Source: Escherichia phage ALITA
Direction: 5' to 3' (one strand)
Sequence record: PP359570
DNA: 64,000 nucleotides
Each line of letters opens with the position of its first letter. Positions within the stretch are counted from its first letter, which is position 1. A model generated the notes under the pieces. The model was not told where the DNA came from, searched no databases, and was given only the letters and a program-made list of their open reading frames with translations. A program made the translations under genes and the position numbers. Below, in pieces: positions 481 to 15,985 of this stretch.

Positions 481-481
481 T

Positions 482-5439: not shown

Positions 5440-5674
5440 TACAGAATAACGCGCAGGGGCGGTGTTTGTCTCGCGCTCCCGTGTCCCCTCGCCATACAAT
5501 AAGAATAGCATAACCAATAACAAAAGCAAGCGATTATTTTTATCTTTACATTTCTTTACAAATTTATTTTAGACGAGCTACCGGCGATCAACCTTCCAAC
5601 CAGTGCCCCCTGGTATGTTAGCCCCGCCTTTACGCCGTGGGGTGGCGTTTCCTCTTCTGTATGTAAAACAGTAT

Positions 5675-5693
5675 AAGCCCGATCCCTGGGCTT
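5675..5693 (-). terminator. intrinsic terminator AAGCCC-N7-GGGCTT
   Basis: Hairpin 7 nt after stop of 5701..5967 on minus strand, followed by atactgtttt. Confidence 0.5.
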
Positions 5694-5700
5694 GTCAAGA

Positions 5701-5967
5701 TTATTTTTTGTTTTCTTGCCAGGATAGGACACCTAACCAAAAATACATGTCGCCCCGCGCCCCTGGTGGGATCTTGCTTTCCCCGCCGCCACTGCAAGCC
5801 CATAAATAACCATCAGCGAACGGATCAAAGTGATCTATCTCTTCCACCTTATGATCGCCCAGGTTGAGAACGGTTTCAACCTTTAAGCCCGTTGCGCTTG
5901 CTACCTGGTGCACCGTGCCGCCTTGCCAGCCCAGTGAGTGCATGAGATGTAAAGAAGTATTTGTCAT
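5701..5967 (-). CDS. hypothetical protein (only minus-strand gene of the island)
   Basis: 88-aa ORF with its own promoter/hairpin/purine leader upstream and a terminator downstream. Confidence 0.6.
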   Translation of the reverse strand: MTNTSLHLMHSLGWQGGTVHQVASATGLKVETVLNLGDHKVEEIDHFDPFADGYLWACSGGGESKIPPGARGDMYFWLGVLSWQENKK

Positions 5968-5989
5968 GGTATCGCCCTTTCTTTGTTGT

Positions 5990-6043
5990 GCGCCCTGGTT
6001 GGCGCGGTAGAAAGATGATAGCCGTTTCCTTCATATATAGCAA
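5990..6043 (-). promoter_or_regulatory. promoter + leader hairpin cassette (minus strand) for 5701..5967
   Basis: TTGCTA-N17-TATCAT, then GCGCC-AACCAG-GGCGC hairpin, then acaacaaagaaaggg leader before ATG. Confidence 0.5.
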
Positions 6044-6077
6044 GCAAAAAAGAAATGAAAAAAAGATTAAAAAATGG

Positions 6078-6106
6078 TTGACGTTCCTCACCTGGTAGCG
6101 TAGTAT
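6078..6106 (+). promoter_or_regulatory. sigma70-like promoter TTGACG-N17-TAGTAT
   Basis: Consensus-like hexamers, divergent from the minus-strand promoter at 6015-6043. Confidence 0.45.
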
Positions 6107-6233
6107 TCATCTTGTCGAGGGGGGCAAGACACAACGACAATAAACAATAGGCGGGTGCAATGCAAGACGGGCAAAGGTGAGGATCTCCACAATCCACCGT
6201 CACAATAACATTACTTATAAAAGGTTGATAACG

Positions 6234-6329
6234 ATGATCAAGAAAGAAAATAGCTTGACGGTTGGAACGATTAACGCTATCATTCTTGCCGTTCCATTTT
6301 GGATTGTAGTTGCGGTTATTATTTTCTAA
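6234..6329 (+). CDS. 31-aa hydrophobic peptide (hand-called)
   Basis: ATG..TAA, sequence MIKKENSLTVGTINAIILAVPFWIVVAVIIF; lies between promoters 6078 and 6340. Confidence 0.4.
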   Translation: MIKKENSLTVGTINAIILAVPFWIVVAVIIF

Positions 6330-6339
6330 AAAAATATTC

Positions 6340-6397
6340 TTGACAACGTTTTTTAATCTGATAAGATGTATCACATAGGGCGGCAATAGTGCCGCTC
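6340..6397 (+). promoter_or_regulatory. promoter/hairpin cassette C1 (serves 6420)
   Basis: TTGACA-N16-TAAGAT (TGn extended), cacATAG, hairpin GGCGGCA-ATAG-TGCCGC, leader cataacagaagagagaaataatc. Confidence 0.7.
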
Positions 6398-6419
6398 ATA
6401 ACAGAAGAGAGAAATAATC

Positions 6420-6692
6420 ATGGCATCATATAGCGCATCAATGATTGTAAAGGGTATCACTGGTAAACCTATGCGCGGTGGCGGATCTTTCGCTAACATC
6501 AATATTGATGGACGTTTATCCCTGGACGCAGCGATCACAGTGGCACGGGAAACATTTAAAAAAGAATGTAATTTCAATAAACAAGATTATCTCGGTTTTG
6601 CTATTGAAAAAACCGCGCGCTTTGTGGATTATAAAAGCCCGAAAATGATCGACACTACACTAAAAGCGCAAGATGTAGCGTTTTTGCTTTAA
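6420..6692 (+). CDS. hypothetical protein
   Basis: 90-aa ORF directly behind cassette C1. Confidence 0.7.
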   Translation: MASYSASMIVKGITGKPMRGGGSFANINIDGRLSLDAAITVARETFKKECNFNKQDYLGFAIEKTARFVDYKSPKMIDTTLKAQDVAFLL

Positions 6693-6705
6693 GACTTGAC
6701 ACTGA

Positions 6706-6756
6706 AAAATAATTTGATAATATATACCACATAAGGCGGGGAAATGGTTTCCCGCC
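6706..6756 (+). promoter_or_regulatory. promoter/hairpin cassette C2 (serves 6779)
   Basis: TTGACA-N16-TAATAT, hairpin GGCGGGGAAA-TGG-TTTCCCGCC, leader aaatcaaagaaaggg. Confidence 0.7.
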
Positions 6757-6778
6757 AAATCAAAGAAAGGGTAATGCA

Positions 6779-7141
6779 ATGAGCAAGCAAATCAATACTA
6801 TCATGTTTAATCTGGTATCTTTCCGCGATGACGTGAAAAACCTTTCGCGTGATGCAGTGGATGCACGGATCGAAAGCTATCGCACACAGATCGCAACGTT
6901 ACCGCTGAAACGTGATCAACATGCCGCTAATATGATGCTTGATGCTATGATTAAAAAGATGATTCAATGTGATCTTACCCTGGCTTATGAATATGCTGGC
7001 GATCTCTTTGTAACATATAGCAAGCCCGTTCCAGGTATGAGCACCACGGAAGAATTGCATGCCTTAAATCTGCGACAAGATGCATGGGATAACATGCGCC
7101 GTGTTATGGTATGGGTAGAAAGCGGTAAAATTTACGAATAA
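6779..7141 (+). CDS. hypothetical protein
   Basis: 120-aa ORF behind cassette C2. Confidence 0.7.
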   Translation: MSKQINTIMFNLVSFRDDVKNLSRDAVDARIESYRTQIATLPLKRDQHAANMMLDAMIKKMIQCDLTLAYEYAGDLFVTYSKPVPGMSTTEELHALNLRQDAWDNMRRVMVWVESGKIYE

Positions 7142-7147
7142 AAACGG

Positions 7148-7200
7148 TTGACATTGCACTAAAACCTGATAAGCTATCTTAAAGCGGGAATAGTTCCCGC
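7148..7200 (+). promoter_or_regulatory. promoter/hairpin cassette C3 (serves 7220)
   Basis: TTGACA-N16-TAAGCT, hairpin GCGGGAA-TAG-TTCCCGC. Confidence 0.65.
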
Positions 7201-7219
7201 TTACATAGGATAAAACTTT

Positions 7220-7366
7220 ATGAAACAATATGTAATGAGTATTCACACCAAAAACGGCGCTACTGTTACGACTCCGGCACGGTTTGCACTTGTAAACCGT
7301 TGCAAGAGACTAAAACGAGAGCTAAAAAACAACCGTGCAACGGGCTTTAAACGCTGGGGAGGATAA
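7220..7366 (+). CDS. 48-aa basic protein (hand-called)
   Basis: ATG 20 nt after hairpin C3; ends GGAGGATAA, which supplies the RBS for the next gene. Confidence 0.5.
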   Translation: MKQYVMSIHTKNGATVTTPARFALVNRCKRLKRELKNNRATGFKRWGG

Positions 7367-7368
7367 TC

Positions 7369-7629
7369 TTGTTTTTTCTAAAAGTTTTTGATAATGTGAT
7401 CGCTTTTGAACATGCTACAACGTTCGACCTGGCGAGATACGCTATCAGGTTTAAAGATAATGTTTATCCCCGTGCTGGCGGCGGTTACACTATTTTTAAT
7501 CATCGCAACGCGCAACTAACTGATATAACTAATCCAGATCCTGGAGTGTATCGGATAGGCTGGCTACCGTCAAAAGATGCGGCAAGCATGTTTAAGGTAT
7601 GTAAACTACTAACAGAAGAGGCGAACTAA
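7369..7629 (+). CDS. hypothetical protein (TTG start)
   Basis: 86-aa ORF, GGAGG 6 nt upstream of TTG. Confidence 0.55.
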   Translation: MFFLKVFDNVIAFEHATTFDLARYAIRFKDNVYPRAGGGYTIFNHRNAQLTDITNPDPGVYRIGWLPSKDAASMFKVCKLLTEEAN

Positions 7630-7630
7630 C

Positions 7631-8185
7631 ATGGGGCGTGAATATGTGATCCAGTCCTGGGTAAAGCATGATGCTAATGATCCGCGCATAATACCAGATG
7701 ACATGATCGATCACATGGTAGGGTATAGCGGGGAGCAGATAGGAAATCGAGCGGCAAAGAGCAACGGCAACACCAGGACGCGATCCGTTCGCCCTGGATG
7801 GCTGGCAAATGGTAACGCTGACATTGCAAGCGCCGCAGATCCAAGCGATGACGCTAAAAATAATCCCTTATACAGTATTGATCCGGCTTTTAAGGTGTTG
7901 GAAGAGTATCCCGCTAAATTAGCCGCACTAGATAAAGCATACGAAGAAAAACGGGTGGCATGGACTGTATACAACACCGCTAAAATGGTGCTAGATGCAA
8001 AATTGATTAAAGCCCAGGAGAAGATCAATAAACTTGTTACCATAGCGCAAGAGGAAGACCAGGACGACCAGGAGGAAGAGGAAGAAATCATGCCTAACCT
8101 GGAAGAGGAAGAGATCCAGCCATACACGCCGACAGAAGAGGAAAAAATACAAGCCTTAAAAAATTATAAAAATTGTATTGTGTAA
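7631..8185 (+). CDS. hypothetical protein with strongly acidic C-terminus
   Basis: 184-aa ORF, 1 nt after previous stop; tail QEEDQDDQEEEEEIMPNLEEEE. Confidence 0.65.
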   Translation: MGREYVIQSWVKHDANDPRIIPDDMIDHMVGYSGEQIGNRAAKSNGNTRTRSVRPGWLANGNADIASAADPSDDAKNNPLYSIDPAFKVLEEYPAKLAALDKAYEEKRVAWTVYNTAKMVLDAKLIKAQEKINKLVTIAQEEDQDDQEEEEEIMPNLEEEEIQPYTPTEEEKIQALKNYKNCIV

Positions 8186-8188
8186 GGC

Positions 8189-8245
8189 TTGACATATGCA
8201 AACAAGCCCCGTAATATGTACCACATAGAGCGGGGCAACCCCCTC
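8189..8245 (+). promoter_or_regulatory. orphan promoter/hairpin cassette C4 (no ORF behind it)
   Basis: TTGACA-N17-TAATAT, cacATAG, GAGCGGGG-CAA-CCCCCTC hairpin, aaaggtgaaataaaaatc leader runs straight into the next promoter. Confidence 0.55.
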
Positions 8246-8265
8246 AAAGGTGAAATAAAAATCAC

Positions 8266-8293
8266 TTGACAACTGAAATCAGTAAGCTATAAT
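8266..8293 (+). promoter_or_regulatory. sigma70-like promoter TTGACA-N16-TATAAT (serves 8331)
   Basis: Perfect consensus hexamers; no GC hairpin in this leader. Confidence 0.6.
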
Positions 8294-8330
8294 GCTTATA
8301 TAAATTAAAGCGTTACTAAGGAATAAAATC

Positions 8331-8696
8331 ATGGCTAAAAATATCAATGTTTCTGCTTATGCTACCCTGGCTAACACTGCTAAAATTGAACTATCCAGCA
8401 TTGAAGCGGTACATATTAGCGCCCGTCGCTGGTTTCAAAAGTCTTATGGTAATACTTATTTCTCTTTGATGGTTGACGTTGAGATCGGCGGTAAACTGAT
8501 TGAAGTCGTTAACGTTCCGTTTCAATATGGTTATGGTGATCATTTTGATACCGTTGCCCTAGAAGAGTTTAGCAAGGTTATCAACCTGGAAGGTAAAGAC
8601 TTTTCAAATTATGCTTACCTTTCCCGTTTTTGCCGTGATAATGGGATCGCTGTATACAGTCATGCAAGCGATGTTAAACGTAAAAAAGATTTATAA
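8331..8696 (+). CDS. hypothetical protein
   Basis: 121-aa ORF, AAGGA RBS. Confidence 0.7.
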   Translation: MAKNINVSAYATLANTAKIELSSIEAVHISARRWFQKSYGNTYFSLMVDVEIGGKLIEVVNVPFQYGYGDHFDTVALEEFSKVINLEGKDFSNYAYLSRFCRDNGIAVYSHASDVKRKKDL

Positions 8697-8702
8697 AAAG
8701 TA

Positions 8703-8766
8703 TTGACAGCACGAATAAAAAGCGTAAAATGTTTTATATCAGGACGGGGGAACGGTTTCCCCTCCT
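8703..8766 (+). promoter_or_regulatory. promoter/hairpin cassette C5 (serves 8786)
   Basis: TTGACA-N16-TAAAAT, hairpin AGGACGGGGGAA-CGG-TTTCCCCTCCT, leader taacaaagagagaaataaaa. Confidence 0.65.
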
Positions 8767-8785
8767 AACAAAGAGAGAAATAAAA

Positions 8786-8968
8786 ATGGCTAAATGCACT
8801 ATCTGTAAGAAAGAAATAGTATTAGTTCCAAGCGCCCGTGAACGTGCCGCTAAGTTTGGTGGCAAACCGTCAGACTATACAAAAATGTTCACTACCCATG
8901 CAGCTTGCCAGGTAGCGAAACGTTCACAAGAAAGCGTAGAATTAATGCGTAAACTTTCCAAAAAATAA
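8786..8968 (+). CDS. hypothetical Cys-containing small protein
   Basis: Start moved to MAKCTICKK because the longer ORF (8729) would read through the promoter and hairpin. Confidence 0.6.
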   Translation: MAKCTICKKEIVLVPSARERAAKFGGKPSDYTKMFTTHAACQVAKRSQESVELMRKLSKK

Positions 8969-8970
8969 TA

Positions 8971-9029
8971 TTGACAAAGTATTTTATTACTATATAATGG
9001 TTTACATCGAGAGCGGGAATAGTTCCCGC
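8971..9029 (+). promoter_or_regulatory. promoter/hairpin cassette C6 (serves 9054)
   Basis: TTGACA-N16-TATAAT, hairpin GCGGGAA-TAG-TTCCCGC. Confidence 0.7.
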
Positions 9030-9053
9030 CTCACTGAAAAAGAGATTAACATC

Positions 9054-9293
9054 ATGGCTAAATCTAAAATGTACAACGGTCACAAAAACAAAACTCATTG
9101 GAATGTAAGCCTTTGGATCAACAACGATGAAGGTTTTTATAATCTTGCGCGTGAATTTATCGCAGCTAACACCAATAAGAATGACGCAGCGCGGGATATG
9201 ATGTTATTTCTTGAAAGTATGGATCAAGATAAAACGCCAGACGGTTACAAGTTCAGTAAAACTGCAATCCGTGCCGCTATGGTTGGAATGTAA
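9054..9293 (+). CDS. hypothetical protein (HWNVSLWINNDE motif)
   Basis: Start at MAKSKMY downstream of the hairpin; 79 aa. Confidence 0.65.
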   Translation: MAKSKMYNGHKNKTHWNVSLWINNDEGFYNLAREFIAANTNKNDAARDMMLFLESMDQDKTPDGYKFSKTAIRAAMVGM

Positions 9294-9306
9294 AGGAGAC
9301 ATAAAA

Positions 9307-9387
9307 ATGAAACATCGTTCGACCTATCTGACAAAACGTTTTAGCTTAGATCATAAATTAGGCTATTACGGAAGAAATAGAAAATAA
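9307..9387 (+). CDS. 26-aa basic peptide (hand-called, weak)
   Basis: GGAGA RBS then ATG; fills the 9294-9388 gap. Confidence 0.3.
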   Translation: MKHRSTYLTKRFSLDHKLGYYGRNRK

Positions 9388-9388
9388 T

Positions 9389-9448
9389 TTGACAACGTTT
9401 AAAATTAGTGTAAGATGTATCACATAGGGCGGGAAATGGTTTCCCGCC
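9389..9448 (+). promoter_or_regulatory. promoter/hairpin cassette C7 (serves 9471)
   Basis: TTGACA-N16-TAAGAT, cacATAG, GGCGGGAAA-TGG-TTTCCCGCC, leader aaatcaaagaaagg. Confidence 0.7.
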
Positions 9449-9470
9449 AAATCAAAGAAAGGTTATCATT

Positions 9471-9698
9471 ATGGCTATCGTTATTGTTCGCGTATCCGGT
9501 ACGGTTGGGATCTCCCAGGTAGTAGCAGTTATCACCGAGAAGAAAGGAGATGATCTTCACTCCTCCTTGAATAGCTGGGCGGTCGCTAACTTTGGGCAAT
9601 GGTCGAGCGTTGAGTACATCGAATCCTACCAGGTGCCAACGATTAGCCTAACCGATCTAAATGTTGATCGCTTGTTGTGCCTGGATCAATTAAACTAA
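9471..9698 (+). CDS. hypothetical protein
   Basis: 75-aa ORF behind cassette C7. Confidence 0.65.
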   Translation: MAIVIVRVSGTVGISQVVAVITEKKGDDLHSSLNSWAVANFGQWSSVEYIESYQVPTISLTDLNVDRLLCLDQLN

Positions 9699-9706
9699 AA
9701 ATAATA

Positions 9707-9764
9707 TTGACAAGATAACTAAAATCAGTAAAATGTAATGCATAGGGCGGCAATAGTGCCGCTC
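9707..9764 (+). promoter_or_regulatory. promoter/hairpin cassette C8 (serves 9786)
   Basis: TTGACA-N16-TAAAAT, gcATAG, GGCGGCA-ATAG-TGCCGC. Confidence 0.7.
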
Positions 9765-9785
9765 CTAGTGAGAGAGATTATCAAG

Positions 9786-10001
9786 ATGGCTAATATCCGC
9801 ACACTGTTAAAAAATGCAAGTCAAGTTTTATTTTCAGATGACGAGTATTTCAACAAAGACATTACAGGCGTGAAAAATTTAAAAGACGTGAAGGATGTTA
9901 TCGGTATCCGTGGATCTTTACGTAAAGGTGACATATACGGTAACAAGGTGCAATATAAACTGTCAAAAGATTATGATTTTACTTTGACATTTATTTCATA
10001 A
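9786..10001 (+). CDS. hypothetical protein
   Basis: Start at MANIRTLL after the hairpin; 71 aa. Confidence 0.6.
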   Translation: MANIRTLLKNASQVLFSDDEYFNKDITGVKNLKDVKDVIGIRGSLRKGDIYGNKVQYKLSKDYDFTLTFIS

Positions 10002-10007
10002 AACCGC

Positions 10008-10068
10008 TTGCAATACTGCAAAAATAAAGTAAACTGTATTCATCAAGGCGGTGGAATAGCCCACCGCC
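10008..10068 (+). promoter_or_regulatory. promoter/hairpin cassette C9 (serves 10092)
   Basis: TTGCAA-N16-TAAACT, hairpin GGCGGTGG-AATAGC-CCACCGCC, leader taacaaagagaagagg. Confidence 0.6.
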
Positions 10069-10091
10069 TAACAAAGAGAAGAGGAAACATC

Positions 10092-10262
10092 ATGATCACT
10101 TTCGCTACCCGTGAAGCCGCTCGCAACGTTGCACGTAAAGTTAACGCCGCCAACCTGGGCGCTACGCTTAAAGCCCCGGTAAAAGATGAATCAGGTAAAT
10201 GGATCTTCCCTGGTCTGCGTCACGCTGATAAGCTGGGAACGTTAACGCTAAAAAATAAATAA
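10092..10262 (+). CDS. hypothetical protein (56 aa)
   Basis: Start at MITFATRE after the hairpin. Confidence 0.55.
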   Translation: MITFATREAARNVARKVNAANLGATLKAPVKDESGKWIFPGLRHADKLGTLTLKNK

Positions 10263-10269
10263 AATCCGC

Positions 10270-10328
10270 TTGACAGTAGCATCATTTATAAGTAAAGTAA
10301 CAACAACGGCGGGAAATGGTTTCCCGCC
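10270..10328 (+). promoter_or_regulatory. promoter/hairpin cassette C10 (serves 10349)
   Basis: TTGACA-N17-TAAAGT, GGCGGGAAA-TGG-TTTCCCGCC, leader atcaataaagagataagatc. Confidence 0.7.
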
Positions 10329-10348
10329 ATCAATAAAGAGATAAGATC

Positions 10349-10888: not shown

Positions 10889-10978
10889 AGCTTATATAGA
10901 GGCTTGTTACCCATAGGCAATGGTAACGCCAGGGCAAGCCTATAAATCAACGTTAGACGGCTTTACAGGAGCTTTAAA

Positions 10979-11161: not shown

Positions 11162-11169
11162 GGCAAGAA

Positions 11170-11571
11170 ATGAAAAAATTATTGATCGCTGGTTTAATCT
11201 CTTTTGGCATGGTTGGAACATCTAGCGCGGCGATATCCTCCACAGTAGCAGAATTAAGCGCCGTTGATGCAATGGAAAACGTCATGCTTATTAATAATGC
11301 GATCCCCGATGAAATCATGGAGGATTCACACATGATCGCTTATGGTGCTGTTACACAACTAACGGCAAAAATAGATAAATCTATTGTTAATGGCTTAAAT
11401 GAAGATGTACCATGTGAAATTATTACCAGTGTGCTCACTACTCAAAATTTTACGCCGTGGTTAAAAAGTATTCAAAAAGTACACAGTACAGCCGCAGATC
11501 GTAGCAATGAAAAACTAGTGTCAGCACTTGCAACGTATACCCTAGCAAAATGCACTGAAATAAAAGATTGA
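11170..11571 (+). CDS. secreted protein (signal peptide)
   Basis: MKKLLIAGLISFGMVGTSSA-A signal-peptide-like N-terminus; start chosen at MKKLL. Confidence 0.65.
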   Translation: MKKLLIAGLISFGMVGTSSAAISSTVAELSAVDAMENVMLINNAIPDEIMEDSHMIAYGAVTQLTAKIDKSIVNGLNEDVPCEIITSVLTTQNFTPWLKSIQKVHSTAADRSNEKLVSALATYTLAKCTEIKD

Positions 11572-11596
11572 CAGCATAGAAAGCACGTTATAAGAT
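11568..11596 (+). promoter_or_regulatory. sigma70-like promoter TTGACA-N17-TAAGAT (serves 11619)
   Basis: Consensus hexamers, no hairpin; leader acacacaacaaaggag. Confidence 0.55.
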
Positions 11597-11618
11597 ACAC
11601 ACAACAAAGGAGAACTAC

Positions 11619-11921
11619 ATGAACGGCATAGCTAAAACGTTTTTTCTTTTTTCTGGTGTAAATGATCCATCAATAAAAGTCGATAGTGTAAAAGAAAACA
11701 ATACTATCACCGCTAAATTGTTTCAAGATGAAACAAATAACGTGCTAATCATTAATCTTAAAGAAATAACTAAAGGTTATTATACTATTGCTTACCATGC
11801 GATCTATCATGCTGGTACTAGCGAGGAAGTGCAAACAAGCAACAACGAAAGCGCGGCGCTACCTGGTGATCTGGTGCTGGGTGTTATTAGTTTAATTGTC
11901 AATGATTTTTTTAAGGAGTAA
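11619..11921 (+). CDS. hypothetical protein
   Basis: 100-aa ORF with AAGGAG RBS. Confidence 0.6.
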   Translation: MNGIAKTFFLFSGVNDPSIKVDSVKENNTITAKLFQDETNNVLIINLKEITKGYYTIAYHAIYHAGTSEEVQTSNNESAALPGDLVLGVISLIVNDFFKE

Positions 11922-11925
11922 AACC

Positions 11926-12021
11926 ATGCCCTATTTACATTTATTTTTCGGGATCTTATTGTCAGGATCTTTTTTCTTCTGTATGCTTGTTTCTATTGTA
12001 AACCACGTTTTAAGACATTAA
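11926..12021 (+). CDS. 31-aa hydrophobic peptide (hand-called)
   Basis: AAGGAG RBS in the end of the previous gene; MPYLHLFFGILLSGSFFFCMLVSIV. Confidence 0.4.
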   Translation: MPYLHLFFGILLSGSFFFCMLVSIVNHVLRH

Positions 12022-12030
12022 GGAAACAGC

Positions 12031-12150
12031 ATGAAAATTATTCCCGTACAATATAGCGTAATAAATCCAGCATATGAGGAAGGAAGGAAAACAAGCATGG
12101 CTTTATGTTGTATTGTTACTATAGCCATGTTGTTATATATTGTGTTTTAA
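12031..12150 (+). CDS. 39-aa peptide with C-terminal TM segment (hand-called)
   Basis: AAGGAAACAGC then ATG; ...MALCCIVTIAMLLYIVF. Confidence 0.4.
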   Translation: MKIIPVQYSVINPAYEEGRKTSMALCCIVTIAMLLYIVF

Positions 12151-12179
12151 TAGGTTTTATAGTTGTACGCTTTAAAGGC

Positions 12180-12231
12180 TTGACAATTTTTTGTTATGCT
12201 TTAAAATATATCTTGAAAACGGCAAAGGCCG
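12180..12231 (+). promoter_or_regulatory. promoter TTGACA-N16-TAAAAT + short CGGC-AAAG-GCCG hairpin (serves 12251)
   Basis: Consensus hexamers; degenerate version of the cassette hairpin. Confidence 0.5.
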
Positions 12232-12250
12232 CAAACAAAAGGGTAAAATT

Positions 12251-12574
12251 ATGAAATCTGTGATCGGTGTTTATTTGGATAACTCTGATTTTTTCTATCA
12301 TCGCGCGCGTTTACTTGATGCTATTGAAATGATAGAATCAGGCTTTAAAGAGTATCGCCTTGCACATGATGACCTGGAAGCATTACAGGGCAATAGTGTT
12401 TTTACATTGCAAGCGAAAGCACTATGCAAAAGCCGGATCGAGATTGCAAGTAAAAAGATAGAGCGCGGCATGTCCTGGTTACGCACCGCAGAAATCAACA
12501 TGGGGCAATGGTACGGCAAAAACTTAGAAAATAAACATGCTTTTGTAAATGTAGAAAATATTGAAGATTATTGA
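12251..12574 (+). CDS. hypothetical protein
   Basis: Start at MKSVIGVY downstream of the promoter; 107 aa. Confidence 0.6.
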   Translation: MKSVIGVYLDNSDFFYHRARLLDAIEMIESGFKEYRLAHDDLEALQGNSVFTLQAKALCKSRIEIASKKIERGMSWLRTAEINMGQWYGKNLENKHAFVNVENIEDY

Positions 12575-12636
12575 TTGACAGCACACCTGATAAGGAGTAT
12601 ATTGTATCTCATAGAGCGGGGAAATGGTTTCCCCGC
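12575..12636 (+). promoter_or_regulatory. promoter/hairpin cassette C15 (serves 12657)
   Basis: TTGACA-N17-TATATT, tcATAG, GCGGGGAAA-TGG-TTTCCCCGC, leader ttaacagaagagataagat. Confidence 0.7.
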
Positions 12637-12656
12637 CTTAACAGAAGAGATAAGAT

Positions 12657-12941
12657 ATGAAGATCACAAAAGCACTTTCCAACTATGCAGCACGTCGCGG
12701 ATTATGCTTATCCGTTGAAAACTTAGGGAAAGAAGATTTTTTGTGCTTTTGGGAGCTTGAGAATGATAATGAGTGGATCTTCTCTTATTCTATCTGCAAA
12801 GATCAAAATGGTTGCTTGTTAACCTGGCGCGGTAATATCTATCTACCGGAAGAAATCAAAGAAGAATTACCAGGCACGATCATGACTGAGAAACAGCTTA
12901 AGGAAGTGATTAATTTTGTAGGGCAAAACATTAAAAAATAA
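12657..12941 (+). CDS. hypothetical protein
   Basis: 94-aa ORF behind cassette C15. Confidence 0.7.
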   Translation: MKITKALSNYAARRGLCLSVENLGKEDFLCFWELENDNEWIFSYSICKDQNGCLLTWRGNIYLPEEIKEELPGTIMTEKQLKEVINFVGQNIKK

Positions 12942-12942
12942 T

Positions 12943-13001
12943 TTGACACTAGGCAAACAACGTAGTAAAGTTTATCACATAGGGCGGCAATAGTGCCGCT
13001 C
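12943..13001 (+). promoter_or_regulatory. promoter/hairpin cassette C16 (serves 13024)
   Basis: TTGACA-N17-TAAAGT; 54 nt from tatcacatag to ATG (12973-13026) are identical to 6369-6422. Confidence 0.7.
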
Positions 13002-13023
13002 ATAACAGAAGAGAGAAATAATC

Positions 13024-13194
13024 ATGATCCCAACTATGTTTTATGTATCGCGCAAAGGTCACAATATTTTTTGGTCTGAAGATTTAAATGAAGCCATGAC
13101 GTTTGCCCGTGATCGTGTTGCTATCGGTGGCGTTAATATTACCGTAACCGATGAAAACGGCATTGAATACTACAACGGCGACGATGAAGAGTAA
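13024..13194 (+). CDS. 56-aa hypothetical protein (hand-called)
   Basis: ATG at the end of the duplicated leader; MIPTMFYVSRKGHNIFW... Confidence 0.55.
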   Translation: MIPTMFYVSRKGHNIFWSEDLNEAMTFARDRVAIGGVNITVTDENGIEYYNGDDEE

Positions 13195-13201
13195 TTAATA
13201 A

Positions 13202-13223
13202 GGCGGGGGGAGTATTCCCCGCC
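13202..13223 (+). promoter_or_regulatory. leader hairpin without promoter (C17, serves 13243)
   Basis: GGCGGGG-GGAGTATT-CCCCGCC then atcaataaagagataaatc ATG; no TTGACA upstream. Confidence 0.5.
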
Positions 13224-13242
13224 ATCAATAAAGAGATAAATC

Positions 13243-13512
13243 ATGAAAATATCATTGGACGTTGCAATCAAGGCCATCGAATCCGGTTACACCCTGGTAA
13301 AAGATGATAAGGCTAAAACCGTGCACCACGTTAACAAGGAAACAGGCGAAAGCATGATCACATATAAAGCCGCCTACTTTCTCCAATCAGTAGCAGATCC
13401 GCGCGTACAACGCCAGGTTACGGCGGCTATTGCTAAAAAATTATGTGCTTTACAGGGTACAAGTTTTAACGAGATCGCCCCGTGTTTTGACTGGTCGAGC
13501 TTGAAAAAATAG
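13243..13512 (+). CDS. hypothetical protein
   Basis: 89-aa ORF behind hairpin C17. Confidence 0.7.
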   Translation: MKISLDVAIKAIESGYTLVKDDKAKTVHHVNKETGESMITYKAAYFLQSVADPRVQRQVTAAIAKKLCALQGTSFNEIAPCFDWSSLKK

Positions 13513-13513
13513 T

Positions 13514-13575
13514 TTGACAATACGCGGTTATCTGGTAAAGTGTACGACATAGGGCGGGGCAATAAGGCAACGCCC
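13514..13575 (+). promoter_or_regulatory. promoter/hairpin cassette C18 (serves 13594)
   Basis: TTGACA-N16-TAAAGT, acATAG, GGGCG...CGCCC stem with large loop. Confidence 0.6.
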
Positions 13576-13593
13576 ATTAATGAGGGTAGAATC

Positions 13594-13698
13594 ATGTTAG
13601 AGAAAATTTTCACGGTTGTAGTAGTGGGCCTGGCGTTATCGGTTGGAGTGGTTGCAACTATGGCTAACATGATCCTATCTTCCCACGGTATTGGATAA
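13594..13698 (+). CDS. 34-aa membrane peptide (hand-called)
   Basis: GAGGG RBS; MLEKIFTVVVVGLALSVGVVATMANMIL. Confidence 0.45.
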   Translation: MLEKIFTVVVVGLALSVGVVATMANMILSSHGIG

Positions 13699-13708
13699 GG
13701 TGAATCAA

Positions 13709-13924
13709 ATGATCACGAATAAGACAGGTAAAACGGAATTCTTGCGCGGCTTGCAAATAGGTAAACCTGAGATCTGGCATTGCACTAAATCCGCGCATAA
13801 TGAAATGAAAGATTTTACCGCTACTTTACAACGTGTTAAAATATCTATCACGCAGAAAAAAGCCTTGTTAGTAGTAGAAAACGAGATACCGCAAACCATT
13901 ATTATTGTCGAGCGTACAGCATGA
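13709..13924 (+). CDS. hypothetical protein
   Basis: ORF track starts at TTG 13691; ATG 13709 has better TAAGGTG spacing. Confidence 0.55.
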   Translation: MITNKTGKTEFLRGLQIGKPEIWHCTKSAHNEMKDFTATLQRVKISITQKKALLVVENEIPQTIIIVERTA

Positions 13925-14307
13925 AAACTGAAATCATTATTGAAATCATCAACGGTTATAAAGAAGCCTTTATTTTTGCTGAATCAGCCAGGGATCATGA
14001 AGGTAATTTTATAGATGACATGACTGATCATGAGTTTTCAGATCAAGCCCATCAGCGGATCATACATGACGTGGCGGCGTTTTGTGATGCCAATGATGCC
14101 GCTATCTCTGAGGCAATGAGCGACGGCGCTACAGCAAACCAGATCGGGAATGACTTACATTTCACCCGTAATGGTCACGGCGTAGGCTTTTGGGATCGCC
14201 CTGAAATATACACTACTAACACCGCCAACCGACTAACAAATGCAGCTAAATTAATGCCATCGGTGCATGCTTACATTGGTGAAGATAATTTGATTTATAT
14301 TGAATAA
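13921..14307 (+). CDS. hypothetical protein (RNGHGVGFWD motif)
   Basis: 128-aa ORF, ATGA overlap with the previous gene. Confidence 0.7.
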   Translation: MKTEIIIEIINGYKEAFIFAESARDHEGNFIDDMTDHEFSDQAHQRIIHDVAAFCDANDAAISEAMSDGATANQIGNDLHFTRNGHGVGFWDRPEIYTTNTANRLTNAAKLMPSVHAYIGEDNLIYIE

Positions 14308-14313
14308 AAAGTA

Positions 14314-14372
14314 TTGACACCGATCCCCAATATGGTATGATTTACCACGTAGGCGGGAAATGGTTTCCCGCC
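14314..14372 (+). promoter_or_regulatory. promoter/hairpin cassette C19 (serves 14396)
   Basis: TTGACA-N16-TATGAT (TGn extended), cacGTAG, GGCGGGAAA-TGG-TTTCCCGCC. Confidence 0.7.
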
Positions 14373-14395
14373 AGGTAATCAAAAAGGTAAATACT

Positions 14396-14785
14396 ATGCG
14401 CAACCTGGTTTCTGTTTCTAACGTTGAAAAATTCCAATCTTTACAGGGTATCGTTAACAACGTAGCGCCTTTTTTAGTCAATGGCTTGATTGCAAAGATG
14501 AAAAATAAACATCATGCGGCATGGTCTGCTTACTGCTTTGATAATGATGAAAAAGCGGCTGAAATGATGTTAGATATGCTGTTAGATAGTGTAGAAACAT
14601 CTTTACCGGAAAACATCGCAGAAGAGATCACCTATCGTTATAATATGGCGATCACTTACCAGGAGGTTGCGCAATTTAATATGATGGATGATGACGAACA
14701 ACAGGATCAGGAAATGTTCTGGGAGTATGCAGATCGTCAATCGGCTTTTGATGAAAAGTTAGCGATGTATTATAACGAATATTAA
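14396..14785 (+). CDS. hypothetical acidic protein
   Basis: Start at MRNLVSV after the hairpin; 129 aa. Confidence 0.6.
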   Translation: MRNLVSVSNVEKFQSLQGIVNNVAPFLVNGLIAKMKNKHHAAWSAYCFDNDEKAAEMMLDMLLDSVETSLPENIAEEITYRYNMAITYQEVAQFNMMDDDEQQDQEMFWEYADRQSAFDEKLAMYYNEY

Positions 14786-14802
14786 TACACGGTAAAAGAA
14801 AG

Positions 14803-14826
14803 GGGCGCACTAAGCGCCCTTTTTTG
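14803..14826 (+). terminator. intrinsic terminator GGGCGC-ACTAA-GCGCCC + T6
   Basis: Perfect stem plus tttttt. Confidence 0.7.
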
Positions 14827-15170
14827 TATTCTTTTTTCACGATGGAAACAACACGTAAAGAATAGGCGTAAAGGTGGCGTAAAACAGCCTAAAACCGATT
14901 ATAACCGCTTAAACAAGGTAATAATGACTAATCACCTTGCCAGGATGAAAAAGCTGTTATAAAGCTATTTAGAGCGTTTAAAGCACATAGGAAATAATTT
15001 GCTTTTTATCTTGCCTTTTATCCTGCTTTTGATTATTATTATGGAACGGGCGGCACCTGGGGACAGGGGAAGATAATCACCGGAAGATCCCGCTATATAT
15101 TAATAGCTAATACCTATCAAACAACAAAACATCAAAGGAATAAACTATCAAATCTTTACAATCCTACCTA

Positions 15171-15231
15171 TTGACACAGGATCACCCTTATACTAATATG
15201 TATCCCGTAGGGCGGGAAATGGTTTCCCGCT
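15171..15231 (+). promoter_or_regulatory. promoter/hairpin cassette C20 (serves 15250)
   Basis: TTGACA-N17-TAATAT, ccGTAG, GGCGGGAAA-TGG-TTTCCCGC. Confidence 0.7.
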
Positions 15232-15249
15232 TGATATAGGAATCATACC

Positions 15250-15483
15250 ATGATCGAACAAATTAAAAGCACTACACCAAATGTTAACGGCAATGTTTCA
15301 CACTTTATCGGTGATAATGAAAGGGGCACACCATACGCCGCCGTAACCGTGCAACCTAATGGCGATTATTGGTTTACCGTGTACGGATCATACTCTTTCG
15401 GACGCCCGGCACATGATAAGATCTTGCAAGCGGTTAAACCTGCGGGGAAGAATATCACAGCAGAAAAATTTTATAAAAAATAG
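15250..15483 (+). CDS. hypothetical protein
   Basis: 77-aa ORF behind cassette C20. Confidence 0.7.
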   Translation: MIEQIKSTTPNVNGNVSHFIGDNERGTPYAAVTVQPNGDYWFTVYGSYSFGRPAHDKILQAVKPAGKNITAEKFYKK

Positions 15484-15484
15484 C

Positions 15485-15513
15485 TTGCTTTATTTCTTCT
15501 GTTAACTTATAGT
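15485..15513 (+). promoter_or_regulatory. promoter TTGCTT-N17-TATAGT with degenerate cassette remnant (gcGTAGGGC, no stem)
   Basis: Hexamers plus a conserved GTAGGGC word, but the palindrome is lost. Confidence 0.45.
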
Positions 15514-15558
15514 TATCGCGTAGGGCAAACAATTTTAAACGGTAAACGAGGAATCACC

Positions 15559-15942
15559 ATGAGCAATATCATCAACCTGGCAGCGACTGTAAACGGTAAA
15601 GACTTTAACGGCGCTGTAGACCGTGATCCTATGTGGTGCTTATCAGTGTTTAAAGGCGATCTGGTTGAAGTTAGAACAACCGAAGGTTATAGCGACGATT
15701 ATAAATGCGAGATTCATTTACACAACTGGTACACGGGTAAAACTTATGCGCTGAATCACGCGTTTATCGGGAAAATTGAATATCGCGAGATGATCGACGA
15801 AGAAACGGGGCAAGATTTTAGCGAGCATGTTTATATTCGTTCAGAAACATTAGCCGAACGTTTGATCGAGAAAATGAAAGCAAAAAATAAAATTAATTTA
15901 TCTCATTGGATTGATATAACAAACGATCCGGCTTATAAGTAA
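15559..15942 (+). CDS. hypothetical protein
   Basis: 127-aa ORF with GAGGA RBS. Confidence 0.7.
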   Translation: MSNIINLAATVNGKDFNGAVDRDPMWCLSVFKGDLVEVRTTEGYSDDYKCEIHLHNWYTGKTYALNHAFIGKIEYREMIDEETGQDFSEHVYIRSETLAERLIEKMKAKNKINLSHWIDITNDPAYK

Positions 15943-15958
15943 ATAACATTTCACACCA

Positions 15959-15985
15959 GGGCGCACAAAGCGCCCTTTCTTTTTA
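15959..15985 (+). terminator. intrinsic terminator GGGCGC-ACAAA-GCGCCC + T-run (end of island)
   Basis: Perfect stem plus tttcttttt. Confidence 0.7.

Follow-up and report, generated by a model that had tools for sequence, protein, structure and literature searches.

Escherichia phage ALITA carries a block of about 10.5 kb in which the genes, their expression signals, and their base composition differ from those of the surrounding backbone. This raises the question of whether the block is a foreign insertion, a genome end, a region under a selection of its own, or something else. The block was analyzed within a window of 64,000 nucleotides (record PP359570), which shares 96% identity with phages inny and Paula and in which the island corresponds to gp225 to gp248 of phi92. 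It is flanked by two AT-rich non-coding segments, AT1 and AT2 (Table 1). ALITA is a phi92-like myovirus (Justusliebigvirus), and in our view the island is probably its hyperplastic array of immediate-early genes, built from cassettes and drawing on a traded gene pool.

Composition and gene content of the island

A cumulative-CpG change-point analysis placed the borders of the island at positions 5449 and 16124, close to the steps at ~5.45 and ~16.0 kb claimed in an earlier sequence-only reading of this DNA. The GC content is 0.402 for positions 5441 to 15985, compared with 0.373 for positions 1 to 4889 and 0.368 for positions 17639 to 64000, and the observed/expected (o/e) CpG ratio is 1.19 versus 0.67 to 0.68 in the backbone. 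GCGC and CGCG words reach 4.55 and 3.22 per kb, versus 0 to 0.69 and 0 to 0.47 per kb in the backbone, in agreement with the enrichment that had been noted by eye. The dinucleotide distance δ* between island and backbone is 169, whereas a null distribution from 24 backbone windows of 10.5 kb gave 32 ± 12, with a maximum of 62; no other segment of sustained CpG o/e above 1 was found across the ~147-kb genome. The composition step lies within coding sequence, and hairpins are not its sole source: the CpG o/e of coding sequences is 1.25 in the island and 0.69 in the backbone, exceeding 1.0 in nearly all island genes and staying below 0.9 in nearly all backbone genes. GC3 is 0.40 in the island versus 0.27 in the backbone, with similar GC1 and GC2, and the suspected preference for CTG, GCG, and CCG codons is evident from relative synonymous codon usage (RSCU; 1.08 versus 0.64, 0.82 versus 0.25, and 1.47 versus 0.40, respectively). 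RSCU correlates with that of real E. coli genes at 0.69 for the island (bootstrap range, 0.57 to 0.74) and at 0.30 for the backbone (0.25 to 0.35). Since the δ* values to E. coli are nearly equal (97 and 105), however, the island is not simply "E. coli-like"; that label is too simple.

The island comprises about 29 genes rather than the ~35 proposed before, but they are indeed tiny, six have hydrophobic segments, and, as stated in the same reading, no recognizable enzymes were found among them. A role in host takeover or counter-defense is a reasonable guess from position and timing only. The gp0.15 counterpart of the gene at 15250 is the first early gene of CLB_P1, which hints at early timing, and it adjoins gp0.3, annotated as an antirestriction protein in the CLB_P1 record. 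The exceptional sensitivity to restriction-modification systems that is reported for this phage group (PMC8594841), on the other hand, argues against effective anti-restriction by island genes.

Table 1. Features of the island and its flanks (window coordinates)
Feature	Position	Strand	Details
AT1, AT-rich non-coding left flank	4890..5440		GC 0.258
Fur-box-like cluster, 4 to 6 overlapping sites	5325..5443		15 to 16/19 matches to GATAATGATAATCATTATC
Conserved non-coding element at left edge of island	5440..5668	-	Candidate RNA, leftward from promoter 5698-5670
Predicted near-consensus σ70 promoter	5670..5698	-	TTGACA-17-TATACT, 11/12 matches
Only minus-strand island gene	5701..5967	-	88 aa, PHROG 19316
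Cassette array	6078..15985	+	28 ORFs, 31 to 184 aa
Example cassette	6340..6422	+	61-nt core 6362-6422, 95% identical to 12966-13026
Example cassette with commonest hairpin GGCGGGAAATGGTTTCCCGCC	9389..9470	+	ΔG −15.4 kcal/mol
Predicted intrinsic terminator AAAAGGGCGCAATAAGCGCCCTTTT, bidirectional	10864..10888	+	GGGCGC-N5-GCGCCC match at 10868
Second copy of 61-nt cassette core	12943..13026	+	Direct repeat, 6.6 kb from the first (6340..6422)
Predicted intrinsic terminator, same design	14797..14825	+	Match at 14803
77-aa gene	15250..15483	+	Homolog (~90% nucleotide identity), gp0.15 of T7-like phage CLB_P1
127-aa gene	15559..15942	+	Pfam PF06019, "Phage GP30.8 protein", E = 8e-29, 100.5 bits (cutoff, 25)
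Predicted intrinsic terminator, same design, right end of array	15958..15976	+	Match at 15959
AT2, AT-rich non-coding right flank	15986..17638		GC 0.314, promoter-poor
Best Fur-box-like site GCAAATGATAATCATTATC	17120..17138		17/19; contains perfect 7-1-7 motif TGATAATcATTATCA

Expression cassettes of fixed format

The array is made of fixed-format expression cassettes, in which a stop codon is followed after ~6 nt by TTGACA-N16/17-TAnnnT, then after ~10 nt by an 8- to 9-bp GC hairpin, a purine leader, and ATG. The median distances are 6 nt from the stop codon to the −35 element and 52 nt from the −10 element to ATG; 12 of 27 intergenic distances in the island measure 81 to 90 nt, and the AT fraction upstream of the promoters is 0.74. 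Seventeen plus-strand ORFs of the island have a predicted promoter of their own within 110 nt upstream. Because 18 of the 25 strict plus-strand promoter matches of the window fall into the island, i.e., into 16% of the sequence, the island is very probably transcribed early by the host RNA polymerase; which promoters are used, where transcripts start, and when are all predicted from consensus matches. With these 18 promoters, and roughly 20 in all, the three transcription units originally assumed are an understatement.

Hairpins with a ΔG of −8 kcal/mol or below (typically −14 to −17) follow 15 of 20 island promoters, starting 10 to 12 nt past the −10 element, which places them downstream of the predicted start, at the 5′ end of the predicted transcript. 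They carry no T-run, and their stem types differ by compensatory changes. In the ASO2A record, the depositors annotated a promoter followed by a terminator ahead of many homologous array genes. The leaders are weak, as had been suggested: the mean anti-Shine-Dalgarno duplex ΔG is −4.3 kcal/mol in the island and −7.5 kcal/mol in the backbone (Mann-Whitney P = 6e-6), and AAGGAG or AGGAGG occurs in 4% versus 37% of the leaders. The same applies to the single island-specific terminator design, since GGGCGC-N5-GCGCCC has exactly three matches in the 64 kb (0 expected), all in the island, whereas the backbone designs GGGGCGAAAGCCCC and ACCCGCTTCGGCGGGT, with three copies each, occur outside it only.

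Variation among relatives and probable exchange between phage families

All Justusliebigvirus and Phapecoctavirus relatives that were examined carry the island at the same site, again with this CpG step. Its content varies between relatives by single-gene indels and replacements, as expected for the separately evolving tiny-gene module with its own expression signals that had been postulated. Alignments show differences that start and stop at cassettes, with genes gained, lost, or replaced singly. High-scoring segment pairs end inside cassettes in 20 of 32 cases (21.7% expected; P = 7e-7); if only intergenic breakpoints are considered, 16 of 19 lie in cassettes versus 60% expected, a modest excess, and the enrichment is largely one at gene boundaries.

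Phapecoctavirus ukendt has 22 of the 29 island genes, with a bimodal distribution and a median of 92.5% amino acid identity, and lacks seven; the median for flank genes is 52.5% (P = 0.007 for island versus flank). The minus-strand gene is 96.6% identical to its homolog in this phage. Strong purifying selection, rather than recent exchange, could however account for part of the high identity between genera. The alleles of the gene at 15250 are 70% identical in some Justusliebigvirus members and 95% identical in Phapecoctavirus. Island DNA matches Vequintavirus, Asteriusvirus, and one Kayfunavirus at 77 to 90% identity, whereas the backbone lacks such matches, and rV5-like phages, 350-kb jumbo phages, and a T7-like phage share some island genes at 77 to 90% nucleotide identity. 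A backbone control protein shows 27 to 31% identity in Phapecoctavirus and, beyond the subfamily, only a couple of marginal matches of 27 to 29%. The same cassette grammar and raised CpG were observed in FV3 and SP27; the SP27 array forms a discrete 20-kb block (CpG, 1.0 to 1.2 versus 0.46 to 0.88 in the flanks), whereas in the rV5-like FV3 the GC content is flat and the step is confined to CpG. As judged from these matches, unrelated coliphage families share both genes and cassette grammar with the island, and the island composition apparently reflects trade among unrelated phages rather than inheritance with the backbone.

These data bear on an account by expression-phase selection under vertical inheritance, according to which the immediate-early genes fit host tRNAs and later genes fit the 15 tRNAs of the phage itself. 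The codon usage nearer to that of E. coli genes and the restriction of the shift to synonymous sites speak for it, as does T4, for which an early/late codon contrast tied to phage tRNAs is an established idea. The closest relative has tRNAs for ACA, GGA, CCA, and CAA, all commoner in the backbone, but the match is partial, as TCA, TTA, and CTA are not enriched there and no tRNA exists for AGA, the most backbone-biased Arg codon. The account leaves unexplained why island genes reach 77 to 95% nucleotide identity in other genera and families, why alleles are incongruent, and why presence or absence varies gene by gene; moreover, the adjacent plus-strand block of small genes at 17.6 to 28 kb has the same composition as the backbone, together with strong Shine-Dalgarno sites. 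As a full explanation it is unlikely; it is best seen as a complement to gene exchange that names the constraint keeping the pool coherent.

Relation to known early gene modules

PeSL (promoter-early stem-loop) cassettes have been described in hyperplastic regions of T4-like phages (Arbiol et al. 2010, PMC2839356; Comeau et al. 2014, PMC4122927). Like these, the island couples a near-perfect σ70 promoter with AT-rich upstream sequence to a G/C-tract stem-loop, and its cassettes lie in short intergenic spaces just 5′ of small genes of unknown function within a plastic region, bounding the indels and replacements between close relatives; by analogy, flanking direct cassette repeats could excise circles, and such mini-circles are the hallmark by which PeSL shuffling is recognized in experiments. 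In contrast to PeSLs, the island belongs to the Stephanstirmvirinae, with look-alikes in Vequintavirus and Asteriusvirus, and is without detectable sequence homology to T4-like phages. A DNA search with the cassette at 9389 gave 2 to 5 places per Stephanstirmvirinae record plus a few Vequintavirus records but no T4-like phage at E ≤ 1e-3, and the likeness is therefore one of design, not of detectable homology. Whereas most PeSLs have their stem-loop between the −35 and −10 elements or overlapping them, the island hairpin would be part of its own transcript; the leaders lack the Shine-Dalgarno site shown in PeSL figures, and the island, known here from predicted signals, forms a single uninterrupted 10-kb block set off by a sharp step in composition. 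Composition is not discussed in the 2010 description of PeSLs (PMC2839356), as far as a text search shows.

The excerpts of the rV5 paper considered here describe "88 mainly small ORFs," an ORF-free 2.6-kb box, and 33 σ70-type promoters (PMC3606486), and those of the CBB paper describe RpoD-like promoters with UP elements clustered at short hypothetical ORFs for which an early role in host takeover was proposed (PMC5259590). Unlike the present account, these excerpts contain no composition step, fixed cassette format, 5′ hairpin, weak leaders, cassette-bounded variation, or cross-family sharing.

The T5 pre-early region and the SPO1 terminal redundancy are host-takeover modules with strong early promoters, located in long direct terminal repeats at the genome ends, and their genes are non-essential or of unknown function. 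The island would resemble them as a compact block of many small genes expressed first from strong host-RNA-polymerase promoters; to our knowledge, neither cross-family exchange nor a composition step is part of their descriptions. By this analogy, the island might be a long direct terminal repeat whose two copies were merged into one during assembly, with AT1 and AT2 as its boundaries, which we consider improbable. The phi92 gene numbering wraps inside AT2, with gp248 on one side and gp002 on the other, and several related records begin inside AT1 or AT2 as read from match coordinates, but record starts mostly follow reference conventions. A second copy of island DNA was not found in the genome parts examined, although a collapsed repeat would show none. 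According to the CBB excerpts, the RpoD-promoter-rich region of short early ORFs of this Rak2-like jumbo phage adjoins a 22-kb terminal repeat with three such promoters (PMC5259590). A terminal repeat is nevertheless unsupported for the island because the related rV5 is described, in the excerpts of its paper, as circularly permuted, with a pulsed-field gel estimate of 132.5 kb that is not above the sequence length of 137.9 kb (PMC3606486).

AT-rich flanks of the island

AT1 contains three tandem repeats of ~70 nt at 5089 to 5307, and AT2 also has short repeats and palindromes. The two flanks had been reported to share 13-mers, and indeed all 13 matches to AATGAKAATCATT with at most one mismatch lie in 5328 to 5416 or 16190 to 17336 (0.71 expected in 64 kb). 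The E. coli Fur operator has the consensus GATAATGATAATCATTATC and the 7-1-7 motif TGATAATnATTATCA; by sequence comparison, the 13-mer is the core of a Fur box, and the sites are of E. coli Fur-box quality. They start at 5325, 5348, 5377, and 5401 in AT1, followed by the palindrome AAATGAGAAtttTTCTCATTT, and at 16187, 16245, 17120, and 17315 in AT2. Six sites in AT1 and AT2 match at 15 or more of 19 positions, versus 0.05 in dinucleotide shuffles, and a control scan of the E. coli ent/fep intergenic regions gave 13 to 16, with the identical 13-mer in fepB-entC. Like E. coli Fur operators, the phage sites match at 14 to 17 of 19 positions, one with a perfect 7-1-7 motif; unlike them, they lie in promoter-poor non-coding DNA of a virulent phage, without visible overlap of a −35/−10 pair. 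A T-to-G variant common to the AT1 copies (GAGAAT) could point to a protein other than Fur.

The conserved element at the left edge is 89 to 93% identical to Phapecoctavirus and 73 to 76% identical at the nucleotide level to Seunavirus and Vequintavirinae. Its sole small ORF is broken by indels, and one helix has three compensatory pairs; a comparison with Rfam gave no match, and its folding energy is unexceptional (z = +0.4).

The original proposal that a foreign 10.5-kb island split one ~2.2-kb AT-rich regulatory or origin region into AT1 and AT2 did not hold up and is very unlikely: although both flanks are AT-rich, non-coding, and carriers of a 13-mer family absent elsewhere in the 64 kb, although composition changes abruptly at each border, and although rV5-like phages have a single ORF-free block of 2.2 to 2.6 kb adjoining a small-gene array, both genera of the subfamily have the island bordered by the same flanks, AT1 and AT2 can be aligned at short box clusters only, no similarity to the non-coding block of FV3 was detected for AT2, and none of 284 matching records revealed a relative with an unsplit region. 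The left-border layout (boxes, conserved element, minus-strand gene, and array) also occurs in the Vequintavirinae Serratia phage ChuuTotoro, and the box cluster of AT1 is kept in this phage and in Phapecoctavirus; any insertion would therefore be older than these subfamilies. The FV3 array likewise has a box-bearing gap on its left and a large gap on its right, and the bracketing thus looks like ancestral design.

Proposed function and origin of the array

In the cassette-built array proposed here, unmodified host RNA polymerase would start at the ~20 predicted cassette promoters after injection. Every transcript would open with a hairpin, which probably shields the 5′ end from degradation, reduces upstream read-through, or does both, and messages with codons near host usage would be translatable by the uninfected cell for that reason. 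The three terminators would end blocks of the array, and the repeated cassettes of 50 to 90 nt may serve as portable homology for gene exchange. Because cassette genes appear to be exchanged one by one among unrelated coliphage families, we infer that the distinct composition does not record a single recent insertion but marks a gene pool that has had a history of its own and is under constraints of its own, i.e., host-only expression.

Identity of the phage and composition of the island

The phage from which the window derives is a phi92-like myovirus of E. coli, placed in the genus Justusliebigvirus of the subfamily Stephanstirmvirinae. Phages inny (MN850601) and Paula (LR865361) share about 96% identity with the window. 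In the annotation of these two phages the island, an array of tiny genes, corresponds to phi92 gp225 to gp248. AT2, the AT-rich non-coding segment to the right of the island, separates gp248 from gp002, so that the phi92 gene numbering wraps within it.

The sequence-only reading had described the island as richer in G+C and CpG than the backbone, i.e., the remaining genome, and the computed profile agrees, for most features more strongly than could be seen without computation. The GC content of the island (5441 to 15985) is 0.402 versus 0.373 and 0.368 in the flanking backbone, with 0.258 in AT1, the AT-rich non-coding segment to its left, and 0.314 in AT2. The ratio of observed to expected CpG (o/e) is 1.19 versus 0.67 to 0.68 in the backbone, and GCGC occurs 4.55 times per kb versus 0 to 0.69 elsewhere. 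Steps are present at both ends, with CpG borders at 5449 and 16124 according to a cumulative-sum change-point analysis. The GC-rich hairpins of the island do not cause this step, because coding sequence alone shows it (GC3 of 0.40 in the island versus 0.27 in the backbone; CpG o/e of 1.25 versus 0.69, consistent gene by gene). The supposed preference for CTG, GCG, and CCG codons is likewise reflected in the relative synonymous codon usage, with island and backbone values of 1.08 and 0.64, 0.82 and 0.25, and 1.47 and 0.40, respectively. The dinucleotide distance delta* between island and backbone is 169, which confirms the deviating composition; 24 backbone windows of island length gave 32±12 (maximum, 62) against the pooled backbone. 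No second sustained segment with a CpG o/e above 1 was detected in the approximately 147 kb formed by the window and the rest of inny.

The first 4.9 kb (1 to 4889) contain neither GCGC nor CGCG, and the two words reach just 0.5 to 0.7 per kb in the backbone from 17639 to 64000; this scarcity may stem from the overall depletion of CpG, or it may mean that certain restriction sites are avoided. The GC skew flips sign at window position ~28,000, where the coding strand switches from plus to minus; within the plus-strand region it is about +0.05 in the island, much below the +0.15 to +0.25 of the backbone.

Anatomy of the cassettes

The island genes are preceded by cassettes consisting of the stop codon of the previous gene, a predicted sigma-70 promoter, a GC-rich hairpin, and a purine leader ahead of the next small open reading frame (ORF). 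The genes are indeed tiny (31 to 184 amino acids), but they number 29 rather than the roughly 35 proposed from sequence alone; six of the 29 encode hydrophobic segments. The proposed division into three transcription units did not hold, the island carrying about 20 predicted promoters. With the strict pattern TTGACA-N16/17-TAnnnT, 18 of 25 plus-strand sites fall in the island (16% of the window) and 7 in the other 53 kb. The -35 hexamer begins a median of 6 nt past the stop codon of the ORF before it and is itself preceded by 25 nt with an A+T fraction of 0.74 (0.60 overall); the median spacing from the -10 element to the ATG is 52 nt. Intergenic distances of 81 to 90 nt account for 12 of the 27 island gaps, and a promoter of its own is predicted at most 110 nt upstream for 17 of the 28 plus-strand island ORFs.

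The hairpin comprises 8 to 9 bp, starts 10 to 12 nt past the -10 element, and commonly reads GGCGGGAAATGGTTTCCCGCC or GGGCGGCAATAGTGCCGCTC. Behind 15 of 20 island promoters its folding energy is -8 kcal/mol or lower, typically -14 to -17 kcal/mol, and no T-run follows the cassette hairpins. Several stem types with compensatory differences were found (GGCGGGAA/TTCCCGCC, AGCGGGAA/TTCCCGCT, GGGGAGAA/TTCTCCCC, and GAGGGGAA/TTCCCCTC), GGCGGG/CCCGCC being an example for which compensatory variants were seen; since the stems were fitted to the predicted structure, this comparison is indicative only. In the record of Phapecoctavirus ASO2A, the depositors labeled a "promoter" and then a "terminator" ahead of many island-type genes. 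Transcription would start about 7 nt past the -10 element, so that each mRNA would begin 3 to 5 nt ahead of the hairpin. In E. coli mRNA decay, a hairpin so near the 5' end goes with protection of that end. The cassette hairpin may have this role; attenuation of upstream read-through is equally possible.

The leaders are as weak as had been surmised, with a mean anti-Shine-Dalgarno duplex energy of -4.3 kcal/mol in the island versus -7.5 kcal/mol in the backbone. AAGGAG or AGGAGG occurs in 4% of island leaders versus 37% of backbone leaders (P = 6e-6), typical island leaders being AAAGAGAGA or AGAAGAGAG. The terminator assignment also stands: GGGCGC-N5-GCGCCC is present in three copies in the 64 kb, at 10868, 14803, and 15959, with none expected, and both backbone designs are confined to DNA outside the island. 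A tRNA scan and an Rfam search of the whole window gave no match.

Two 61-nt cassette cores (6362 to 6422 and 12966 to 13026), 95% identical and in direct orientation 6.6 kb apart, are by their sequence candidates for recombination that would cause deletions or release circles. The circular records pEC-M2929-1AR.1 and AMO3598 both start and end within a cassette, and a 127-nt "repeat region" annotated at that record junction (end of record OP177727; L004 1-127) corresponds to window positions ~6696 to 6728. Repeated cassettes appear to break or falsely close assemblies.

Position of the island in related phages

It had been proposed that insertion of the island split a single AT-rich region. 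The comparison speaks otherwise: in all relatives examined, which represent two genera and include two members of Phapecoctavirus, the sister genus, the island lies at the same locus with the same flanks and the same CpG step. A Serratia phage of the Vequintavirinae has a left-border order identical to that of ALITA, namely, replication and peptidase genes, a gap with boxes, the conserved element, a minus-strand small gene, and the plus-strand array. AT1 and AT2 align with one another in the box clusters only, and none of the genomes among 284 matching records carries them contiguously. In the rV5-like phage FV3, the array likewise lies between a gap with boxes, on its left, and an ORF-free stretch of 2.2 kb, on its right; bracketing by non-coding gaps therefore appears to be the ancestral layout. 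No homology was detected between AT2 and the 2.2-kb block of FV3. Of the features of a recently inserted island, deviating composition was found, and absence from or other placement in relatives was not. The island is not an insertion on any recent time scale.

T5, SPO1, and CBB suggest an alternative, in which the island would be a long terminal repeat that assembly had collapsed; a host-takeover module of the T5/SPO1 type is present at each end of the DNA in the virion. This is unlikely, as the rV5 paper describes that phage as circularly permuted, with a size in pulsed-field gel electrophoresis not exceeding the sequence length (PMC3606486). No second copy of island DNA was found elsewhere in the genome, although a collapsed repeat would not reveal one.

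Divergence and spread of the island genes

The suggestion that the module evolves separately from the backbone was supported, as island and flanks diverge differently between genera. In DNA comparisons of Justusliebigvirus with Phapecoctavirus, the island is 79 to 95% identical, and the flanks are 67 to 83% identical or unalignable. Of the 29 island genes, 22 have a counterpart in Phapecoctavirus ukendt (median amino acid identity, 92.5%; 14 at 91% or more, the others at 35 to 85%) and 7 do not; among 20 flank genes, counterparts were detected for 10, the median identity being 52.5% (P = 0.007). Variability among relatives, which the sequence-only reading had called for, takes the form of single-gene insertions and deletions. 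Alignment breakpoint clusters lie inside cassettes in 20 of 32 cases, versus an expectation of 21.7% of the region (P = 7e-7). Among intergenic breakpoints the excess is modest (16 of 19 versus 60% expected), so that the enrichment is largely a preference for gene boundaries. Neighboring alignment blocks often share a stretch of the subject as long as one cassette. The distribution of alleles of the 77-residue gene at 15250 is incongruent with taxonomy, since some Justusliebigvirus members carry a 70% allele and Phapecoctavirus a 95% allele.

Island segments match rV5-like Vequintavirus, the ~350-kb Asteriusvirus, and the T7-like Kayfunavirus CLB_P1 at 77 to 90% nucleotide identity, whereas backbone DNA gave no match beyond the subfamily in the same search. 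At the protein level, the DUF7249 protein (9054 to 9293) also has relatives among cyanophages and among T7-like phages that infect other hosts; a neighboring backbone protein is 27 to 31% identical in Phapecoctavirus, with a couple of marginal matches (27 to 29%) outside the subfamily. FV3 and the jumbo phage SP27 display the same cassette grammar as the ALITA island. The GC content of FV3 is flat across the array, and the step is visible only in CpG. The array of SP27 is a discrete, promoter-rich, 20-kb block of small genes (134,001 to 154,000) with a CpG o/e of 1.0 to 1.2 versus 0.46 to 0.88 around it; adjoining regions of tightly packed small genes retain backbone composition. Some host labels among the matching records appear doubtful: MG0656xx ("Campylobacter phage"), OR847174 ("Listeria phage LM 4-11-1"), and MT119359 ("Enterococcus phage heks") match the ALITA DNA or its cassettes closely, the heks genome (39.7 kb) having its cassette match at 545 to 613.

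The AT-rich flanks

All 13 matches to the 13-mer reported to be shared by AT1 and AT2 fall within these two segments (0.71 expected), as claimed. This 13-mer forms the central part of the Fur-box consensus of E. coli. AT1 and AT2 together contain 11 Fur-like sites that agree with the consensus at 14 or more of its 19 positions (0.45 expected), 6 at 15 or more (0.05 expected), and 4 at 16 or more (0 expected), the expectations being derived from dinucleotide shuffles of the same segments; their clusters bracket the array (see the table). A perfect 7-1-7 motif is located at 17125 to 17139, and the copies in AT1 share a GAGAAT variant. As a control, three intergenic regions of the E. coli ent/fep cluster, which are Fur regulated, were scanned and scored 13, 16, and 15, values that the phage sites equal or exceed. 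Two of the AT2 sites are kept at matching positions in Phapecoctavirus, where AT2 is just ~60% identical. At its operators, Fur-Fe2+ binds over a promoter and thereby represses it. No convincing pair of sigma-70 -35 and -10 elements overlies the boxes, and AT2 has 9 promoter-like sites versus 12.8 in shuffled sequence. Searches for literature on Fur boxes in virulent phages and on transcriptomes of Stephanstirmvirinae found nothing relevant. Fur binding to these boxes, predicted from their sequence, is a lead and not a result.

Features flanking the island
Feature	Position	Basis
Fur-like box clusters bracketing the array	5325-5443, 16187-16263, 17120-17339	19-bp consensus scan
Left island edge, conserved non-coding element (minus strand), downstream of the near-consensus promoter	5440-5668	
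Left island edge, near-consensus minus-strand promoter	5698-5670	
Left island edge, sole minus-strand gene	5701-5967	

The left edge of the island is built differently from the array. Its conserved element is the most widely conserved DNA of the region, with 89 to 93% identity in Phapecoctavirus and 73 to 76% in Seunavirus and another Vequintavirinae phage. Indels exclude a coding function. One helix carries three compensatory pairs; the fold is no more stable than that of shuffled sequence, and the element matches no Rfam family. The element may represent a small RNA or a site in the DNA, and we do not claim an RNA. A permissive Rfam scan of 4850 to 6150 returned only chance matches to miRNA families, over the palindromic boxes.

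Other repeats are found in both segments. AT1 contains three tandem repeats of ~70 nt (5089 to 5307), labeled repeat_region in inny and alia, and AT2 contains three overlapping copies of the 23-nt motif TAAYCATTTCATACARTAATTAT with a spacing of 16 nt (16558 to 16612), as well as several palindromes. A role of these repeats as an origin or in packaging is possible. The sequence AAAGGGGTGT, which occurs in both segments, was considered as a phage-specific promoter element and discarded, as it is not enriched (5 found versus 4 expected).

Gene content

In accordance with the statement that the island encodes no recognizable enzymes, searches of its proteins against Pfam, PHROGs, and PDB sequences yielded no function. 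Of 20 proteins scanned, 19 belong to PHROGs of unknown function and 1 had no match; the only Pfam matches above the cutoff were PF06019 ("Phage GP30.8 protein"; 15559 to 15942) and DUF7249. In the PDB sequence search, the 77-residue protein (15250 to 15483) showed similarity to one blade repeat in the beta-propeller of virginiamycin B lyase (E = 1.5e-9), and the other island proteins gave nothing. The close homolog of this 77-residue protein in the T7-like phage CLB_P1, gp0.15, is the first gene of that genome (L010 452-772) and directly precedes gp0.3, labeled antirestriction protein in that record; this position supports immediate-early expression by the host polymerase. Because the searches gave no function, a role in host takeover or counter-defense is a guess from position and timing. 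According to the BASEL study, the phi92-like group is exceptionally sensitive to restriction-modification systems (PMC8594841), which argues against an effective anti-restriction function.

Discussion

The system described to date that is closest to the island is the promoter-early stem-loop (PeSL) cassette of hyperplastic regions in T4-like phages (PMC2839356, PMC4122927). As in PeSLs, a near-consensus predicted sigma-70 promoter with an AT-rich upstream region is coupled to a stable stem-loop (in PeSLs often a G tract followed by a C tract), the cassettes lie directly upstream of small genes of unknown function in a plastic region, and indels and replacements between relatives are bounded by cassettes, with the modest intergenic excess found here. 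In contrast to most PeSLs, the ALITA hairpin is located past the predicted start site, within the transcript; moreover, the leaders lack a Shine-Dalgarno sequence, the cassettes form a single contiguous block, and there is a composition step. PeSLs are further characterized by a stem-loop with terminator or attenuator function and by encapsidated mini-circles that arise through recombination between motifs; the pair of 61-nt cores would be a candidate substrate for such recombination. In blastn searches (E ≤ 1e-3), the complete cassette matched Stephanstirmvirinae, a few Vequintavirus records, and one 39.7-kb phage, and no T4-like phage. The island is therefore classed as an analogous variant and kept apart from the PeSL sequence family. 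According to a text search, base composition is not discussed in the 2010 PeSL paper (PMC2839356). The rV5 paper notes many small ORFs, an ORF-free box, and sigma-70 promoters and concludes from base composition that there is very little evidence of horizontal acquisition (PMC3606486); the CBB paper proposes an early region from clustered RpoD-type promoters (PMC5259590).

With respect to the origin of the composition, codon usage of the island correlates with that of real E. coli genes at r = 0.69 (bootstrap, 0.57 to 0.74) and that of the backbone at 0.30 (0.25 to 0.35). Since delta* to E. coli is alike for both (97 and 105, respectively), the island signature as a whole is not closer to the host, and "host-like" is limited to codon choice and CpG/GpC. 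Explaining the codon contrast purely by early versus late translation is incomplete, as the 15 tRNAs of a relative fit the backbone-preferred codons only partly. In the co-directional block of small genes at 17.6 to 28 kb, the composition is that of the backbone, Shine-Dalgarno sites are strong, and matches to the sigma-70 consensus promoter are few; hence it is the cassette format, and not gene size or strand, that composition follows. In our reading, the island genes belong to a pool whose members pass from one phage backbone to another and rely solely on host machinery, in which case history and constraint together would hold their composition coherent and distinct. Escape from the silencing that H-NS imposes on AT-rich DNA may also play a part.

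We tentatively propose, while considering it on balance rather unlikely, that unrelated lineages share one immediate-early gene pool in a plug-in format with its own host-like composition and that genuine Fur operators bracket the phi92/phAPEC8 array. The lineages would comprise Stephanstirmvirinae, Vequintavirinae, and the Asteriusvirus jumbo phages, with T7-like phages for single genes; the format would be a sigma-70 promoter, a 5' hairpin, a leader without Shine-Dalgarno sequence, and a small ORF, and the composition of the pool would show itself in every genome concerned by an abrupt step in CpG.

A CpG or dinucleotide step together with the promoter-hairpin-leader grammar would provide a simple computable marker, applicable to large virulent phages, of a first-expressed, horizontally traded gene set, almost entirely of unknown function and the usual hunting ground for host-takeover and counter-defense genes. 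In the papers considered here, cassette shuffling is described for T4-like phages only; our data suggest a counterpart elsewhere, which may cross families. Two very different compositions have persisted within one phage genome since the split of two genera, which bears on composition-based host prediction and on the detection of horizontal transfer. The Fur-box clusters offer a testable lead linking a virulent phage to host iron regulation. If the proposed reading is true, the phage would tie its early program to the iron status of the host; alternatively, hundreds of replicated phage copies would titrate Fur and de-repress the iron-uptake regulon of the host.
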